From Candidatus Altimarinota bacterium (lineage in GTDB: Bacteria; Patescibacteriota; Gracilibacteria; UBA4473): a stretch of 40,000 bases of DNA. Each line of letters opens with the position of its first letter. The first letter of the stretch is position 1. Of the stretch, positions 22,817-29,980 are shown in pieces. The notes below the pieces were generated by a model. The model was not told the origin of the DNA, ran no database searches, and saw nothing but the letters and a program-made list of their open reading frames with translations. The translations under genes and the position numbers were made by a program. The stretch is taken from NCBI GenBank assembly GCA_963677105.1, contig OY781871.1, forward strand, positions 469,090 through 509,089, read 5' to 3'.

Positions 22817-25800
22817 TTAGTTACATAATGGTTGTGGCGTAAACATTCCACAAGTTCCGGCAGAAGGAGGCGTAAAGGATCCTGCTGGTAGATAGATTAA
22901 GTGTTTATCGGTCTGTAGGTTCTGCATTCCCGTGAGAGCATTGACTCCTTTCATTACATTCGCATTCCCGTCAACAATTGCAGAAACTTTGTTATTATCA
23001 TTAATTGTACATTCTTCAATTATTACTGGTTTTTCTGTTTCAGAACAATATTTATCAGCAACTATCCCTCCTAAACTACTTGAACAACTCACTTTGCGGG
23101 CCCTATATAACACTGGTGAAGCCAATGAAGCACTCGTCAAGGCTGTTTCAACTGTACTTAATTCAATTCCTGTCGAAGACATAAATCCTCCTCCCGATAC
23201 TCCTACGTCTCGACTTGCAACGGAAGTGGCATGACTAATATCATCAATCAGTGCTACTGCTTCTATCGCAGCAATTTGCTCAAGTCTTTCGTCCACCGTC
23301 ATTGGAGTTCCTTCTACTATATCTATCAATGAAGCCCTTGAAAGAGAACTCGATAATCCTGCTGCAGTTAAAACTTGTTCCTTTTTCTGTGTCAAATTTG
23401 TAACTGCTGCTGCTGCTGACTGTTGAACTGATTTCTCTGCTGCTATTACGTTCGCTACTCGTTGATTATTTCCACAATTTCCCCATTCTCCTACTTCCCA
23501 GTCATATGTAACCTTTGTTAGTGTACAGTCTTCTACGCTCGCTGGACGAGCACTGACCGAACTACTAAGTTTGTCTGTACAGAATGAATCTTCTACCACT
23601 TTCCCTGTATTTATGTGTACACAGTCCACGTCTCGTGTTCGAATAGGGATTTTGTTTTTGGCTACTGAGGAATAGAGTGTTGCACCACTTCTTGCTGAAG
23701 AAGATGTCACTAGATACGCCTCCTTTATTTGTGCTGAAATCTCTTCTATATCTTCCTTCACTTTTAGTGCCGCTTTTTCTAATCCTGTTCTTCTCTTTGA
23801 TAACACTGGAGTAGTTGTACTCACTGCTATATTATTTTTTGCTGTCTCAAGTTTCGTGTATTTTTTCTCGAGTTTTTGCTTCACTATTTCTATAGAAGAA
23901 TCTGCATCAGGTCCACATGGACTCCATTTTCCCAATCTCCATTCATAGTCATCCTCAAGTTCACACTCCATCATAGACACTGGTCTTGATGAACTAAATG
24001 TTGTGAGCTCATTACTGCTTTCACAGAAAGAATCTTCTACGATTTTTTTATCTGAACGCTGACAACTTACGTCTCTGTATTTATATGGCAATCCACCATC
24101 ATTCACTTCTTGGTTCACTATTGATACAGCTTCACTAAAAGTAAGTGTAGATTTTGTTGCATCTGTTATCGTCGTCGTATCAGGACTTCCACTAATCGCT
24201 ATTTTCTCATATTTTCTCGCTTTTTTTGCATTAATTGCCTTTGTATATTTTCGAAATTTAGCATTTACTCGAGCTTGAACACGAGCTGTCTCATCGCTTG
24301 AAGCAGAAATCGAAATCACTGCATCTGACGGACTTGACCAAGATGGCAATGATGAAAAGTTCTCGTTTGCCTGTGCCACGAACTTCGCCCGTGCAGATTC
24401 TAATTTTGCAATCTCTTCATCTGCTGTTTCTTTTTCTTTCTCTCTTCTTGAAACATATAATTTCACGCTTTCTGGTTTTCCTGCACAGTCGCTCCAATCA
24501 CCAGTAATCCATGAATATGTATATTTCACTTCATTGTCATACAATTTACATGTTTGACTCGATTTCGGTCGCTCTGTTCCCGCACAATACACCTCTGATT
24601 GAAGTGATCCAAATTCACTAAGACAAAGTACGCTTCTAAACTGAATTCCTACTGGAACTGAAACAGCTTCCTCCACTGAAATATCACTATCCACTAAAGC
24701 GTTTATTGCAAGCACCACATCTTCTTTCACTTTATTTTTCAATGACACTGCTTTCGTCAAGCTTTCACTGCTGCTAGACAACGTACTTCCAGCTCCTGAA
24801 GTATAATATGTCACCATTTGTTCTGCTGCACGTAACTCTTTTTCTAAGTCCTCTACTTTTTCATTAAGATCAACTTTTTCTGCTCCACACGGTCCCCATC
24901 GTCCTACGCTCCATGTTCCTGGGATGCTTACGAGTGGATCTTCTGCTCCGAAAATGTTTCCTGTTTTCATTGATTGCACTCCCGCTCCGAGCTCGTTCAC
25001 AGCGTAAACAAAGATATCATATTTCTTTCCCGCTTCTGGCTTTGGCGTACCTGTTACGTCCCATGTATATGCTCCTTCTCCTTCTGCTACGTCAAAACAT
25101 GTTGTCCCCAAAGATTCTCCTTGCACACACACTTTGTAGGTACTAATTGTACCGTATCCTTTTTGAGCTTCTGTACTCAAGTCTGTCCAAGTAACTGTAA
25201 ATCCATTTGCTTGAGACTCAATCGCTAAATCTGCTGGTGCCAATGGAATAGTCACAAAATTCAAGTTCAAAAGATTTCCTTCTTTATACAAATCTCCTGT
25301 GAAGTTAATATTTCCTCTTATGTCCAATGCTTCTGTTGGAACGGTTGTCGGAAGAAGGTTTATTCCTACCTTTGATGTTCCCGCTAATGAGTCAGCTAGC
25401 CGAACTGTCGGCGCTGTAACCGAAATTTTTGTGTTCGCCCCTGGTAGCCCTGCCAATGTTGCAATATTAATATCTCCCGTTGAATCATTCTGAATTAATA
25501 TATCTTTATCTAGTCCTCCAGCAATTTTCATGCTTAAGTCTTCGCTTAATGAAGAAATGTCTAACTGCTCACTCTGAGAACTCAATATTATCTTTCCTGA
25601 ATTCCTGCTTAACACCTCTGCTCCATCATCTCCCATTCGAATTGTATTGTTCCCAACATGAAGATCCTCTACCCAAAGATTTCCAAACCATTTATCTGCG
25701 GCCCCAATATTTCGAGTAGAAATAACTCCCGTCGCTCCTGTCATATTTGGCAATATGTCTGAAGTAACATCTGTAAGATCTGCTCCACTTCCACCTGATA

Positions 25801-26179
25801 TATCCGTTCCACAGGTAAATACTCCCGAAGCATCAACTGCCTGAAGTTGTTCTCCTGATGCACATGTCAGAGCCGTAACCCCTGAACCACCTGCCGGCCA
25901 AGCTGTTATACAGTCTGTATTTATACAAAATTCTGGCGCAGTTAATTTTGTAACAGATGTATCATTTAAATCTAATCCTGTAATTTTCCCGCTTCCATCA
26001 ATATCTACTCCTGTAAATACTTCTGTTACCTCGTTTATCGCAGACGTTATATCGTTAAACTCGTACGCAGAAACGGGGTCACTTGCTGATTTTTCTGGAA
26101 AATTGAGGGAACTAATCTGAGCACTCGCGTTGCTCATTATAAGTACCCCGACGAGGCCGAGAAGAAGCGTTTTTTTCAT
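22817..26179 (-). CDS. Giant secreted protein: signal peptide, fibre-like N-terminal region, FN3 domain, four split thrombospondin-type-1-like Cys modules
   Basis: Signal peptide MKKTLLLGLVGVLIMSNASAQ (start trimmed to 26179). FN3-like region at aa 321-415 of the track ORF (nt 24962-25246). Four repeats of Y-x-W-x-x-G-x-W-S/G-x-C-G ... R-x-V-x-C ... C ... (R/K)-P ... C (nt 23009-24916). Confidence 0.8.
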   Translation of the reverse strand: MKKTLLLGLVGVLIMSNASAQISSLNFPEKSASDPVSAYEFNDITSAINEVTEVFTGVDIDGSGKITGLDLNDTSVTKLTAPEFCINTDCITAWPAGGSGVTALTCASGEQLQAVDASGVFTCGTDISGGSGADLTDVTSDILPNMTGATGVISTRNIGAADKWFGNLWVEDLHVGNNTIRMGDDGAEVLSRNSGKIILSSQSEQLDISSLSEDLSMKIAGGLDKDILIQNDSTGDINIATLAGLPGANTKISVTAPTVRLADSLAGTSKVGINLLPTTVPTEALDIRGNINFTGDLYKEGNLLNLNFVTIPLAPADLAIESQANGFTVTWTDLSTEAQKGYGTISTYKVCVQGESLGTTCFDVAEGEGAYTWDVTGTPKPEAGKKYDIFVYAVNELGAGVQSMKTGNIFGAEDPLVSIPGTWSVGRWGPCGAEKVDLNEKVEDLEKELRAAEQMVTYYTSGAGSTLSSSSESLTKAVSLKNKVKEDVVLAINALVDSDISVEEAVSVPVGIQFRSVLCLSEFGSLQSEVYCAGTERPKSSQTCKLYDNEVKYTYSWITGDWSDCAGKPESVKLYVSRREKEKETADEEIAKLESARAKFVAQANENFSSLPSWSSPSDAVISISASSDETARVQARVNAKFRKYTKAINAKKARKYEKIAISGSPDTTTITDATKSTLTFSEAVSIVNQEVNDGGLPYKYRDVSCQRSDKKIVEDSFCESSNELTTFSSSRPVSMMECELEDDYEWRLGKWSPCGPDADSSIEIVKQKLEKKYTKLETAKNNIAVSTTTPVLSKRRTGLEKAALKVKEDIEEISAQIKEAYLVTSSSARSGATLYSSVAKNKIPIRTRDVDCVHINTGKVVEDSFCTDKLSSSVSARPASVEDCTLTKVTYDWEVGEWGNCGNNQRVANVIAAEKSVQQSAAAAVTNLTQKKEQVLTAAGLSSSLSRASLIDIVEGTPMTVDERLEQIAAIEAVALIDDISHATSVASRDVGVSGGGFMSSTGIELSTVETALTSASLASPVLYRARKVSCSSSLGGIVADKYCSETEKPVIIEECTINDNNKVSAIVDGNANVMKGVNALTGMQNLQTDKHLIYLPAGSFTPPSAGTCGMFTPQPLCN

Positions 26180-26196
26180 GTGTGTTTGTGTGAAAA

Positions 26197-26205
26197 ATTG
26201 TATCA
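26197..26205 (-). promoter_or_regulatory. Extended -10 promoter element for the giant minus-strand gene
   Basis: The minus strand reads TGaTACAAT. It is 17 nt upstream of the ATG at 26179, and the short leader is CA-rich (CACACAAACACAC). Confidence 0.4.
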
Positions 26206-26671
26206 ATATCTATTTTTTCACGCATTGAGAAAAAAGCCAAACTTTTTTTGGACGTAAAATTTTCTCTCTCCCCATCAAAATGGGAACTCAGTCCTATTTA
26301 TATTTGACTTTTTTGTGCTTTTAGTCTATTCTACAAGTGTTCCTTGGCTACTTTTACAAAAGATCGTCAAGGATGATCTTTGATATATCAGAATTTAGAA
26401 AAAATAAGCTTTTATCTTTGGTGGCTATAAGCCACTTTTCACACCATTATATCGCTGTTTTTTCCGAATCGAGCAGCTGCTTCATTTCTTCTCCTTTTGT
26501 CATTGTGGACTTGCTCCACAATCCATCTTTAAAAAATTAAATTCAGGATGAAAAGCCGAAAGTGACGCGCCTTCTCGATTCGGAACGGTAGCCTTTCCTC
26601 TACCAATCGCCAAGTCGATGATTCCGTAAGTAAGAAAAAACAAAAAAAATAGAATCCCAAAGGAGGGACCA

Positions 26672-29600
26672 ATGTTTTCTACAAAAAAAGGGATTGTGGT
26701 CATCCTTATAATGACCATCGCTGTTTTGGCTTTCGGCCAGAACATGGAATACGAAAATCATGGAACAATGACTGTTGGCGGAGGATCATATCTTCGTCAT
26801 AATTGGGTACAATTACCCAATGGTGACAACTACGTTCGCTGCACAACCAATGGCGTGTCAACAAATGTTGAGTTATATGCCGGATGGACATTAACGTTTA
26901 ATGGCGTTACAAATCCATGTATGGCGGAAGACGATGGCACAATTTATTGCGCTGTTAGTCAATATGACGCAACCACAATTGGCGGAGTCACATATCCTGA
27001 TCCTCCAAACAATGAATCACGAGTTATTCTCGTGAAAATTAGTTCAAGCGGATCTGTCTTAGATTCATGGATCACTTCTGACCATGGATTTGAGCTGAAG
27101 AATATCGCAACGAATGGCTCCGAGATAGCACTTGTTGGACACGCTGACCCATCATTAGAACACCTCTCCTCCCCAATCGGCGGAGGCGTTGTTCTCATCC
27201 ATGATGGAAACAACTGGGATCCCACGAAGGGTTTCTATATTGAAACCCCTGCTAATGGATTTCGTCCGGTTGTCACCGATGTTCAATTTCTCTCAAATGG
27301 AAATTTGGCCTTAAGTGGGGAATGGACAGGCGGAACACTGTCTTTCGGCGGACTTTCTCGTTCTCCTATCGGAGGAGAGGATATGTTTCGTGGAGAAATT
27401 AGCACCGCTGGTGTTGGTATTTCCGTTGTTAACTCTGGTGGTCTTAGTGGTGATTTCGATAATATCTCTATCACCAATGCAAATGGTGATTATATGATCA
27501 CTGGGCTGTATTGTAGCTCTACATCACTAACTACGTTCTATAACGCAGACGAATCGGTTGGAGGAACTATTGATGTTCATCCTGTTGGCAACTCACATGA
27601 TCAAATGTATTTTGCATTCTATGACGCTTCTGGCGTATTGCAGAATGTAGAGTATGTATACAACTCCAACGAAGATCTACGTAATGTAGACGTCGCTTGT
27701 AGCGACGGATACTTTTACGCCATGATTAGCAATGAAAATGGGGGAACTGTAGTAACTCCAACGGAAAGTCACTCTCAGCTAGCTCCTATAATGCTTAAGT
27801 TTGATTCTGTGGGAACTCCCATATGGTCAAAGCAGTATGAGGGAACCTCTGCTCAATACGGAGAAGAAATTCTCGTGAGCGGAGATATCGTGACCATTTG
27901 TGGTCTTGAGTACGGAACATCCGATCTCGATTTCGATGTCAACAACGTAGTCAATGTGTCCAATACTAGCTATTGGGCTCGTTACTTCGACGGCGTCGTA
28001 GTTGGACCAACCGCAGATTTCGTTGGAACTCCAACCACAATCGTGGAAGGAGAAAGTGTTTCCTTTACGGATTTATCCGGAACTGGAACAAATCCAATCA
28101 CTTCTCGCTACTGGACATTTGGAGACGATGGAACTTCTAGTTCTACTAATCCAACCAATACTTATGATGATCCCGGAATATACACAGTTTCTTTAACTGT
28201 TTCCGACGGCGACCTATCAGACACTGAAACGAAAACTGCGTATATCACTGTGATTGCGCAAACTTTGTCATTAACTCCAACATCAGAAGATGTTACTGCT
28301 GCGGCTGGTTCTACCAGCTTTACAGTTTCATCCAACGGTGGATGGAACGCAGAGGAAGCCTGTGGCTGGGCTACAATCGCCCCCGCCTCCGGAAACGGAA
28401 ATGGAAGCATTGCGGTCAACTATCAGGAAAATACAACAACGGTTAGCCGAAGTTGTGTTGTAACTGTAACAGCTGACAACGGTCTTGAGGAAGTGTTTAC
28501 ACTGACTCAAGCTGGAGCAACTCCTGTGTTGGTTTTTGATCCTACAACAACGAATGTTTCAACTGTTGCTGGGAACGCTGTTTCTGTCTTGAGTACTAAC
28601 GAGGCTTCTGCTTCATTAGTTATCTCAGGATCAGGTGCTGCTGTAAATCCAACAACCGTTGTAACTGGTGACACAAATGTAACGGTTTCATATCCAGCGA
28701 ATCTGGACATGGCAACTCGATCGTTTGTTGTAACCGCCACATCAAGTCCTCACGGACTTGTTGAAACGTTTACCGTTGATCAAACTGGTGTTGATGCGTT
28801 TATCGTATTGACCCCAGATAACGCGAACGTTCCAGCTTCTGCTGGTTCTGTAAACGTTACGATTGATTGCCCGGGCGACCTTGCTTGGACAATTGATGGA
28901 TTGGCTGATTGGATAACCGTTGACGAGTTAACCGGAACAGGACCTCAAGATATCTTGATTTCCTACGAAGAGAATGAAGAAGAAACTCCACGTTCAGACG
29001 ACTTCACTGTCGCTGGATCCGGGGAAACTGCAATGTTTTCTCTGAGTCAAGTAGCAGCAAACGCTCCTTTGAGCGGAACTGCAACTGCGTCTCCAGATGA
29101 AATATCTGTTGGTGCGGAAATTCAGCTGTCAGCCCAGGGAACTGGCGGAACTGGGAATTATTCTTATTCCTGGACCTCTGTTCCTGTTGGTTTTACATCA
29201 ACAGAACAGAGCCCGACAGCCACTCCTGTAATTCATACAACGTACTCTTGCGACATTTTTGATGGCGAAGATGCGTTTGTAGCAGAAGTTGACGTAATTG
29301 TTCATCCACTTCCTGTGGTTGATTTTTACGCCGACGACGTAACTCCAACTGTTGGTCAGGTAGTGCAGTTCACTGCTGACATTACTTTCCCTTCTGGAGC
29401 ACTTGGTGTTTCCACTTACGAATGGGACTTCGATGATCCCACAGGTGAAAATGGCGGATTCTCCAATGAGGAAAATCCAGGCTACGCATTTGCCGAAGAT
29501 GGGAGCCACGACGTGAAGTTGACCATCTGGTTAACGGACGGGACAGTTACTTGGGAACAGAAGATTGATTACATCACTATCACCGTTGGTGTTGATGATG

Positions 29601-29878
29601 AACATGTGACTCCGGTCACAACTTCACTCTCGAACTATCCCAATCCGTTCAACCCAACTACTACAATTCGTCTTCAGGCGAATGCAAACGTGGAATGGAA
29701 ATCCCTTGGCGTTTATAACATCAAGGGACAGTTGGTTAAATCTATAGATGTGGACCGTTTACGCGGAACACAAAACATAGAGATAAAAATGGACGAGAAT
29801 GCTTCTGGGGTATATTTCATGCGTGCTACTACGTATGATGGAAAGAATATGCTTCACAAAATTTCTCTTTTGAAATGA
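26672..29878 (+). CDS. Giant secreted protein: SBBP-like propeller region, 2 PKD domains, 3 BACON-like Ig modules, T9SS-type (type A) C-terminal sorting domain
   Basis: Signal peptide MFSTKKGIVVILIMTIAVLAFGQN and a strong SD AAGGAGG. PKD domains at about 28000-28255 and 29300-29590 (WTFGDDGTSS, YEWDFDD). BACON-like modules at 28261-29050. C-terminal domain at about 29620-29875 (NYPNPFNPTTTIRL...GVYFMRATTYDGKNMLHKISLLK). Confidence 0.8.
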   Translation: MFSTKKGIVVILIMTIAVLAFGQNMEYENHGTMTVGGGSYLRHNWVQLPNGDNYVRCTTNGVSTNVELYAGWTLTFNGVTNPCMAEDDGTIYCAVSQYDATTIGGVTYPDPPNNESRVILVKISSSGSVLDSWITSDHGFELKNIATNGSEIALVGHADPSLEHLSSPIGGGVVLIHDGNNWDPTKGFYIETPANGFRPVVTDVQFLSNGNLALSGEWTGGTLSFGGLSRSPIGGEDMFRGEISTAGVGISVVNSGGLSGDFDNISITNANGDYMITGLYCSSTSLTTFYNADESVGGTIDVHPVGNSHDQMYFAFYDASGVLQNVEYVYNSNEDLRNVDVACSDGYFYAMISNENGGTVVTPTESHSQLAPIMLKFDSVGTPIWSKQYEGTSAQYGEEILVSGDIVTICGLEYGTSDLDFDVNNVVNVSNTSYWARYFDGVVVGPTADFVGTPTTIVEGESVSFTDLSGTGTNPITSRYWTFGDDGTSSSTNPTNTYDDPGIYTVSLTVSDGDLSDTETKTAYITVIAQTLSLTPTSEDVTAAAGSTSFTVSSNGGWNAEEACGWATIAPASGNGNGSIAVNYQENTTTVSRSCVVTVTADNGLEEVFTLTQAGATPVLVFDPTTTNVSTVAGNAVSVLSTNEASASLVISGSGAAVNPTTVVTGDTNVTVSYPANLDMATRSFVVTATSSPHGLVETFTVDQTGVDAFIVLTPDNANVPASAGSVNVTIDCPGDLAWTIDGLADWITVDELTGTGPQDILISYEENEEETPRSDDFTVAGSGETAMFSLSQVAANAPLSGTATASPDEISVGAEIQLSAQGTGGTGNYSYSWTSVPVGFTSTEQSPTATPVIHTTYSCDIFDGEDAFVAEVDVIVHPLPVVDFYADDVTPTVGQVVQFTADITFPSGALGVSTYEWDFDDPTGENGGFSNEENPGYAFAEDGSHDVKLTIWLTDGTVTWEQKIDYITITVGVDDEHVTPVTTSLSNYPNPFNPTTTIRLQANANVEWKSLGVYNIKGQLVKSIDVDRLRGTQNIEIKMDENASGVYFMRATTYDGKNMLHKISLLK

Positions 29879-29952: not shown

Positions 29953-29980
29953 AAGCACCGGATCCGTCCGGTGCTTTTCT
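29953..29980 (+). terminator. Rho-independent terminator of the T9SS-CTD gene
   Basis: AAGCACCGGA-TCCG-TCCGGTGCTT, then TTCTTCG. Confidence 0.75.

Follow-up and report, generated by a model that had tools for sequence, protein, structure and literature searches.

A type IX secretion sorting domain ends an adhesin-like protein of a Candidate Phyla Radiation bacterium without detectable type IX machinery

Introduction

In bacteria of the Fibrobacteres-Chlorobi-Bacteroidetes (FCB) group, type IX secretion system (T9SS) cargo proteins that carry a type A C-terminal domain (CTD; TIGR04183/PF18962) consist of a signal peptide, passenger domains and a terminal beta-sandwich of ~80 residues. Here we analyze a protein of the same organization that is encoded in the genome of a bacterium belonging to the Candidate Phyla Radiation (CPR), namely the 1068-residue product, labeled P0001, of the open reading frame (ORF) 26672-29878 on the + strand of a 40,000-nt stretch of a Candidatus Altimarinota genome (contig OY781871.1, positions 469,090 to 509,089). 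This entire stretch is hereinafter called the window, and coordinates are those of the window unless a genome position is specified; the type A CTD at the end of P0001 and of similar proteins is called the tail.

The closest FCB cargo proteins are PKD-rich S8-peptidase and adhesin-like proteins of Zixibacteria, Cloacimonadota and Ignavibacteriota with 'NYPNPFNP...' tails. These tails share with that of P0001 the YPNP and G-x-Y-F motifs and the terminal K-x-x-L-x-K, and in both, the domain overlaps with matches to the FlgD_ig and CHU_C profiles. P0001 differs from these proteins in having an N-terminal propeller confined to the CPR lineage and a host in which neither the T9SS machinery nor Omp85 is detectable, so that outer-membrane export, tail cleavage and attachment to lipopolysaccharide (LPS) cannot take place in this cell. 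The CTD of RgpB from Porphyromonas gingivalis is a seven-strand immunoglobulin (Ig)-like sandwich in which the last two strands carry the signal and which dimerizes by C-terminal strand swapping (PMC4804311). The tail of P0001 belongs to the same domain family, and its predicted fold is weakly modeled; the RgpB tail is removed by PorU and replaced by anionic LPS, whereas no PorU is detectable in the host of P0001. Like the LPXTG-containing sortase substrates of monoderm bacteria, P0001 appears to be a secreted surface protein with a C-terminal sorting element, but it lacks the LPXTG motif, the C-terminal membrane helix and the charged tail of these substrates.

The T9SS reviews retrieved in our searches describe the system as confined to Bacteroidota or to the FCB group, and a full-text literature search retrieved no papers on T9SS tails in CPR bacteria or in DPANN (Diapherotrites, Parvarchaeota, Aenigmarchaeota, Nanoarchaeota and Nanohaloarchaeota) archaea, the sole trace being a table entry in an archaeal paper. 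In the case described here, a closed genome with no detectable T9SS or Omp85 encodes the tag at the exact C-terminus; purifying selection acts on it, and it has moved from protein to protein. Such a tag either serves another function that is yet to be described or is a mark of contact, genetic and perhaps physical, of episymbionts with FCB bacteria, in which case it could help predict the hosts of uncultured CPR lineages. Annotation pipelines name such proteins 'T9SS type A sorting domain-containing'; in CPR and DPANN groups, this annotation is no evidence of type IX secretion.

Results

A type A sorting domain at the extreme C-terminus of P0001

Upon re-reading of the translation, the ORF, its coordinates and the C-terminal sequence given in the initial annotation of the window were found to be exact, and the T9SS type A CTD that had been recognized there from the letters of the sequence scored above the curated cut-offs of both Pfam and NCBIfam. 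The Por_Secre_tail profile (PF18962) matched residues 989-1064 with 37.1 bits (37.7 bits in a repeat search) against a gathering cut-off of 27, and TIGR04183 gave 33.6 bits against a cut-off of 23. The domain envelope spans residues 985-1068 of the 1068, that is, the extreme C-terminus of the protein. In the AlphaFold model, the tail comprises six strands between residues 998 and 1066, at a pLDDT of only ~40-60.

The remainder of P0001 is a chain of beta-rich modules that starts with a signal peptide in which, as judged by eye, a basic n-region is followed by 14 residues of hydrophobic core and a c-region of small residues. The initial annotation had assigned the N-terminal region to SBBP-like propeller repeats. 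No Pfam family matches residues 1-445 even at E<=0.1, so that there is no match to the SBBP (PF06739) or sialidase profiles, but the propeller fold itself holds: the AlphaFold model, built on six orthologues, reaches a pTM of 0.76 and a pLDDT of 71.5, and the top Foldseek matches are the CylK propeller, which is the best match in the PDB (TM 0.59), a putative Bacteroides neuraminidase and BamB/WD40 propellers. The CylK propeller (PDB 7FH6/7RON) and the putative neuraminidase BACOVA_03493 (PDB 4IRT) superpose with this N-terminal domain model at TM 0.5-0.6, whereas sequence identity is 9-16%, and the likeness is thus at the level of the fold only. Downstream, the PKD and BACON profiles score above the Pfam gathering cut-offs, with two PKD_4 stretches and two BACON_2/BACON stretches. 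Three BACON-like modules had been proposed; two of these have Pfam support, and the third is suggested by the model and by an insert of ~90 residues relative to the orthologues, AlphaFold confidence being low at residues 617-673. In the alignment, an extra Ig/BACON-like module at about residues 601-690 (28472-28741) is absent from all eight orthologues and is probably the product of a tandem module duplication. When the full-length model was compared with known structures using Foldseek, only generic Ig-array proteins were retrieved, which is uninformative with respect to function.

No type IX machinery is detectable in the host genome

The genome that encodes P0001 consists of one closed contig (962,416 bp; 36.4% GC; 100% complete, 0.13% contamination). 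As judged from LysS, the host is a CPR/Patescibacteria bacterium of the Gracilibacteria/Peregrinibacteria type, given that the nearest named LysS relatives all come from Candidatus Gracilibacteria, Peregrinibacteria or Peribacteria (54-66% identity).

Our search covered the seven core families SprA, PorV, PorU and GldK/L/M/N. The standard control genomes lack a T9SS, and T9SS-positive controls were reached via PKD matches, namely, Chitinophaga cymbidii, Chryseosolibacter histidini and a Saprospiraceae metagenome-assembled genome; each of the seven families was found at high score in two to three of these Bacteroidota genomes. In the genome that encodes P0001, the SprA, PorV, GldK, GldL, GldM and GldN profiles gave no match at E<=1, and the only matches to the PorU profile were the tails themselves. 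Extending the search to 11 tail-bearing relatives, SprA, GldK and GldM were absent from all 12 CPR genomes tested; for SprA (TIGR04189), 0 of the 12 contrasts with 3 of 3 Bacteroidota controls at 1996-2791 bits. Across 401 genomes sampled evenly from the CPR phylum, no PorV was detected. Omp85/BamA (PF01103) was likewise found in none of the 12 CPR genomes, whereas 3 of 3 Bacteroidota controls and 7 of 7 named diderm controls were positive. The expectation that this host is unlikely to possess a T9SS, previously drawn from the surrounding genes, is borne out by these searches, in which none of the seven T9SS families and no Omp85 were found and the controls were positive; the complete T9SS that would have made the protein an ordinary cargo is not there to be found with these profiles.

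Two other proteins encoded in the genome (genome positions 103659-104996 and 189363-190628) carry LPQTG or LPSTG at the C-terminal end, with a hydrophobic helix and a basic tail after the motif. Such LPXTG-type signals, typical of classical sortase substrates, fit a Gram-positive-type envelope. A simple regular expression for the sortase TLxTC motif yielded one match only, in a 704-residue protein, and no sortase gene was identified.

Tails are dispersed over the genome and recur in the family

P0001 is not the only tail protein of this bacterium. Five Por_Secre_tail proteins score over the cut-off in the genome and are dispersed at 142, 498, 623, 771 and 793 kb (genome positions 141928-142680, 495761-498967, which is the P0001 gene, 623031-624734, 769262-771658 and 792569-793321). 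All five genes sit among housekeeping genes, and the tail is at the extreme C-terminus in the other four proteins as well. The passengers are unrelated to one another and adhesin-like, including leucine-rich repeats (LRR), a dockerin-like domain, fn3-like domains and the PKD/BACON/propeller combination of P0001. Tails over the cut-off are encoded in 10 of the 24 other genomes of the same family (42%), including a closed genome with seven matches, six of them over the cut-off, and in 1 of the 16 other families of the class. Judging from sequence alone, the tails appear to be maintained in the lineage.

No full-length orthologue of P0001 was detected in the 40 nearest GTDB species, and a related-locus search of GTDB genomes returned no close relative but only PKD-level matches, so that the orthologues come exclusively from metagenome proteins. 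These eight proteins, P0004-P0011, are 42-44% identical to P0001 over the alignment A1, or 44-51% in BLAST local alignments that cover 50-66% of the query. The gene for P0009 adjoins a V-ATPase operon of the same gene order and 59-91% identical to that of this genome, and homologues of the thrombospondin-repeat protein encoded next to P0001 (22817-26206; 40-45% identity) adjoin both P0009 and P0005; a second conserved gene context is common to P0005, P0006 and P0007. The initial annotation had left open that the gene came into the contig through an assembly or binning error. This option is excluded by the closed contig, the five dispersed tails and the presence of the orthologues in syntenic CPR contigs.

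One of the small tail proteins has a positional orthologue within the same genus (L007:659-1558 in genome G001 versus G000:C1:792509-793321 in the present genome; 32% identity), whereas the flanking seryl-tRNA-synthetase-like gene is 91% identical within the genus. Such surface proteins evolve very fast within one genus. In this pair, the tail is slightly better kept (39% versus 30% identity), the two proteins being too diverged for estimation of dN/dS.

Selection on the tail and its spread across phyla

For four closely related orthologues, dN/dS of the tail is 0.29-0.52 compared to 0.16-0.23 for the rest of the protein; the tail is under purifying selection that is relaxed about twofold relative to the rest. 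Synonymous divergence also differs along the gene: in P0005-P0008 (L068, L070, L071 and L072), dS in the last 78 codons is 0.12-0.36, about half of the 0.31-0.79 observed in the rest of the gene, which suggests that the 3' end has undergone recombination or gene conversion, or is constrained at the nucleotide level.

Tails over the cut-off were detected in 21 of the 401 genomes (~5%) of the even CPR sample, and 20 of the 20 CPR tails examined end 0-1 residue before the stop codon. In the DPANN archaeal phylum to which a Woesearchaeota genome belongs, tails are present in 30 of 201 genomes (15%); among 20 DPANN tails examined, 15 are terminal, that is, within 0-2 residues of the stop codon, and 5 are internal. 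A comparison with Chloroflexota, which lack T9SS, yielded 8 of 201 genomes, mostly with marginal partial matches and in much larger genomes.

P0001 is a mosaic with a swapped tail

The propeller is the best conserved part of the protein among the orthologues, and no BLAST match to it was found among all the non-orthologous matches retrieved, that is, outside the CPR orthologues P0004-P0011. From about residue 880 on, the alignment indicates that P0001 is not orthologous to its relatives, PKD domain 2 included, and the relatives carry an 'IYPNPTSG...' tail whereas that of P0001 reads 'NYPNPFNPTTTI...'. The closest relatives of the P0001 tail are the paralogous tails of its own genome (42-43% identity), followed by tails of the FCB/Zixibacteria type (33-40%); the named top matches come from Cloacimonadota and Ignavibacteriota. 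No recent donor of the tail emerged from 20,125 matches among 1.84 billion representative proteins, the best match outside this genome being 48% identical. The gene is, by these comparisons, a mosaic of a lineage-specific propeller and PKD/BACON/tail modules, with a tail that is FCB-like and of a subtype swapped relative to the orthologues. Horizontal acquisition, another option raised previously, is supported for the PKD, BACON and tail modules and by the composition of the gene, but not in the form of a simple recent import of the whole gene because the propeller is found only in CPR orthologues and the pair that the gene forms with its neighbor is conserved in relatives.

The composition of the gene is atypical. 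At 44.8% GC, it ranks 1st of 541 ORFs of at least 600 nt (mean 36.6%, standard deviation 2.6), its GC content at third codon positions (GC3) falls at the 98.7th percentile and no gene of the genome is less typical in its synonymous codons, all of which is to be read against a surrounding region (488-532 kb of the genome) that is generally GC-rich (for example, PurL with a GC3 of 0.33) and against the orthologues in relatives, where GC3 matches that of neighboring genes. The three local GC counts reported previously (59, 45 and 40 per 100 nt) were exact, and the suspicion of unusual composition that they raised is confirmed at the genome scale, the gene being the top outlier in both GC and codon usage. 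GC3 peaks in the swapped C-terminal part (0.42-0.45), where PKD domain 2 is the highest of the segments at 0.45. In codon typicality, three of the five tail genes rank among the lowest 1%.

The tail genes also stand out by their translation signal. The strong Shine-Dalgarno (SD) sequence AAGGAGG pointed out in the initial annotation is indeed present, 5 nt ahead of the ATG, and an SD site of at least 5 nt precedes 5 of 5 tail genes compared to a background of 30 of 667 ORFs, or 107 of 667 (<=16%) as a generous bound (Fisher P ~1e-4); the site is not common to all orthologues. The five tail genes form a distinct class in composition and translation signal.

A Bacteroidota-type PorV in a member of the family

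A different member of the family, G003, encodes an intact PorV with a signal peptide (L055:9911-11080, corresponding to G003:C3:62961-64058; 481 bits against a cut-off of 250). Its best matches are PorV proteins of Bacteroidales and Bacteroidia (53-59% identity). Flanked by MurJ-RluD and by further genes syntenic with the genome analyzed here, the gene resembles its neighbors in composition, and 17 contigs read from JGI, NCBI, Logan and ENA show it in the same context. Profile searches of G003 detected no SprA, PorU, GldK/L/M/N or Omp85. This PorV documents gene flow from Bacteroidota into the family.

On the same contig of G003, the class II fructose-bisphosphate aldolase (L055:11154-12083) is 88.6% identical to its counterpart at a different locus of the present genome (G000:C1:667600-668619), whereas the G003 orthologues that neighbor the aldolase are only 41-58% identical to those of this genome. 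The aldolase gene may have been transferred recently between members of the family, or it may be under unusually strong constraint.

What the tail might do in a cell without a type IX system

With no translocon, shuttle, sortase, motor or Omp85 detected, the tail cannot be an outer-membrane export signal in this bacterium, and given that PorU was not found, it presumably stays on the mature protein. We lean, by a modest measure of confidence, toward the view that the tail is retained as the terminal Ig-like module of a Sec-exported, adhesin-like surface protein of a CPR cell that lacks T9SS and Omp85. Under this scenario, a tail captured long ago from FCB-group bacteria would have been joined to a lineage-specific beta-propeller fused to a PKD/BACON Ig stalk, so that the protein ends in a type A CTD beta-sandwich. 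The protein would be exported by Sec, the propeller and the Ig stalk would bind a partner cell, and the tail would keep the adhesin on the cell surface or gather it there in clusters, for instance, through C-terminal strand swapping or by binding glycans of the envelope or of the partner cell. Any specific mechanism of anchoring or clustering is only tentatively proposed and may well be wrong. The repurposing of the C-terminal domain, which the initial annotation listed among several options, is thus the one that we find best, on the strength of the conservation, the terminal position and the module swapping seen in the sequences. The tails in DPANN argue for a general, T9SS-independent role rather than for mimicry of a host T9SS alone.

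Several observations weigh against retention of the tail for such a role. Its dN/dS exceeds that of the remaining protein about twofold and its identity among orthologues tracks, rather than exceeds, that of the passenger domains, and therefore the tail is not specially constrained. One orthologue, P0004, lacks the tail altogether. The strictly terminal position could have been inherited from the donor cargo genes. The confidence of the AlphaFold model for the tail is low (pLDDT 40-60), a comparison of the neighborhoods revealed no partner gene recurring beside the five tail genes, and the case for a missing outer membrane is built on Omp85 alone, LPS genes, LptD and secretin not having been searched.

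A rival reading takes the tail for a neutral relic that came along with PKD/Ig modules from FCB bacteria and persists without a function, as the stably folded terminus of a surface protein that evolves fast. In favor of it, the P0001 gene is the strongest outlier in GC and codon usage, with the C-terminal part being the most extreme, the tail is the less constrained part (dN/dS 0.3-0.5 versus 0.16-0.23), the orthologue P0004 has no tail, and no partner gene was found beside the tail genes. We nevertheless regard a functionless tail as unlikely: its dN/dS is well below 1, tails are kept in 10 of 24 genomes of the family and on five unrelated passengers in this one, a lost tail subtype is replaced by another tail and not by nothing, the 20 sampled CPR tails are all exactly terminal, and the composition of the orthologues matches that of their neighbors, so that, in a family of this age, a domain without use would have had time to decay. 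It is about equally unlikely, in our estimation, that in episymbionts without an outer membrane, that is, CPR and possibly DPANN, the CTD is a genuine terminal sorting or docking signal, read either by undiscovered machinery of their own or by PorV/PorU of an FCB host. Each of the two variants taken separately is improbable. If the machinery were a yet undiscovered one of CPR bacteria (perhaps also of DPANN) that recognizes the CTD and processes or anchors the protein, this would account for the combination of an N-terminal signal peptide with an exactly terminal tail in 20 of 20 CPR and 15 of 20 DPANN cases, for the presence of the tail on unrelated passengers, for the swapping between subtypes and for the SD signal common to the tail genes. 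However, no candidate machinery was found, no gene recurs beside the five tail genes, and the spread of the tails is patchy (5% of the CPR genomes, 42% of the family). One would expect the presence of a dedicated system to follow that of the tails. The other variant, to which we assign a similarly low probability, is that the CPR cell lives on T9SS-bearing FCB bacteria and that its tail-tagged adhesins dock from the outside on the surface-exposed PorV or attachment complex of the host. The adhesins would thereby glue the epibiont to the host cell, and PorU might even ligate them to the LPS of the host. The full signature of a T9SS signal and its exact C-terminal position are kept, the passengers (LRR, dockerin-like, fn3, PKD/BACON, propeller) are adhesin-like, the nearest named tails are those of Cloacimonadota and Ignavibacteriota, and the intact PorV that G003 has acquired is 53-59% identical to that of Bacteroidales, which attests to gene flow from Bacteroidota. 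Against docking on an FCB host, the same tails, mostly terminal, occur in 15% of the sampled DPANN genomes, and the known hosts of DPANN are archaea without a T9SS; PorV was detected in none of the 401 genomes of the phylum sample, and PorV or PorU are not known to be engaged from outside the cell.

Two further explanations were weighed. A diderm host with a T9SS so divergent that the profiles missed it might be surmised from the canonical PorV of the relative G003, but we hold this to be very improbable given that at E<=1 the present genome lacks the seven core families altogether, that Omp85, detected in every diderm control, is absent from 12 of 12 CPR genomes, and that the G003 PorV stands alone, without SprA, PorU or GldK/L/M/N. 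That the gene belongs to a co-assembled FCB bacterium has only the atypical composition in its favor and is next to impossible: the single closed contig shows 0.13% contamination and carries four more tail genes elsewhere, the orthologues lie in independent assemblies beside CPR-type V-ATPase genes and the same neighbor gene, and no FCB homologue of the N-terminal domain appears among the matches.

Other features of the locus

The features of the P0001 gene and its surroundings are listed in Table 1. In the consensus scan, promoter-like sites were fewer than in shuffled sequence, so that the candidate promoter is a weak one. The hairpin downstream of the stop codon is likely, as read from the sequence, to be the terminator of a monocistronic unit.

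Table 1 Sequence features of the P0001 gene and its surroundings in the window.
Feature	Position	Strand	Evidence and remarks
Divergent neighbor gene, secreted protein with thrombospondin-type repeats	22817-26206	-	Pfam TSP1_ADAMTS
Promoter-like site, TTGACT, 17-nt spacer, TATTCT	26304-26332	+	Consensus scan, 9/12 matches; implied 5' untranslated region ~340 nt
Shine-Dalgarno sequence AAGGAGG	26660-26666	+	Read from sequence; 5 nt upstream of ATG
Putative Sec-type N-terminal signal peptide, MFSTKKGIVVILIMTIAVLAFG then QN	26672-26737	+	Judged by eye from translation, without predictor
Predicted orphan beta-propeller, ~residues 45-410	26804-27901	+	AlphaFold model and Foldseek; best conserved part among orthologues
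PKD domain 1, residues 445-527	28004-28252	+	Pfam PKD_4 82 bits, PKD 50.9 bits
BACON domain, residues 532-616	28265-28519	+	Pfam BACON_2 54.2 bits, BACON 49.6 bits
Two further BACON-like Ig modules, ~residues 617-795	28520-29056	+	Second Pfam BACON stretch, alignment insert, beta-sandwich strands in model
Ig-like module, ~residues 796-880	29057-29311	+	All-beta in AlphaFold model (pLDDT 70-82), conserved in orthologues, no Pfam name
PKD domain 2, ~residues 881-985	29312-29626	+	Second PKD_4 stretch; tblastn PKD matches to residues 889-984
T9SS type A CTD (Por_Secre_tail), NYPNPFNP subtype	29627-29875	+	PF18962 and TIGR04183; reaches stop codon
GC-rich hairpin AAGCACCGGATCCGTCCGGTGCTT then T-rich TTCTTCG	29953-29976	+	Read from sequence, 3' of stop codon

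The window also contains ordinary genes, namely those for PilB, PilC, RNase Y, SHMT, MetG, PurH and PurL. Its part from ~19000 to 40000, and the sequence beyond, holds an outsized share of the most GC-rich genes of the genome, those at 488-532 kb including PurL, a response regulator and a tetratricopeptide repeat (TPR) gene beside the V-ATPase operon; this GC-rich stretch may reflect a regional effect or an old island.

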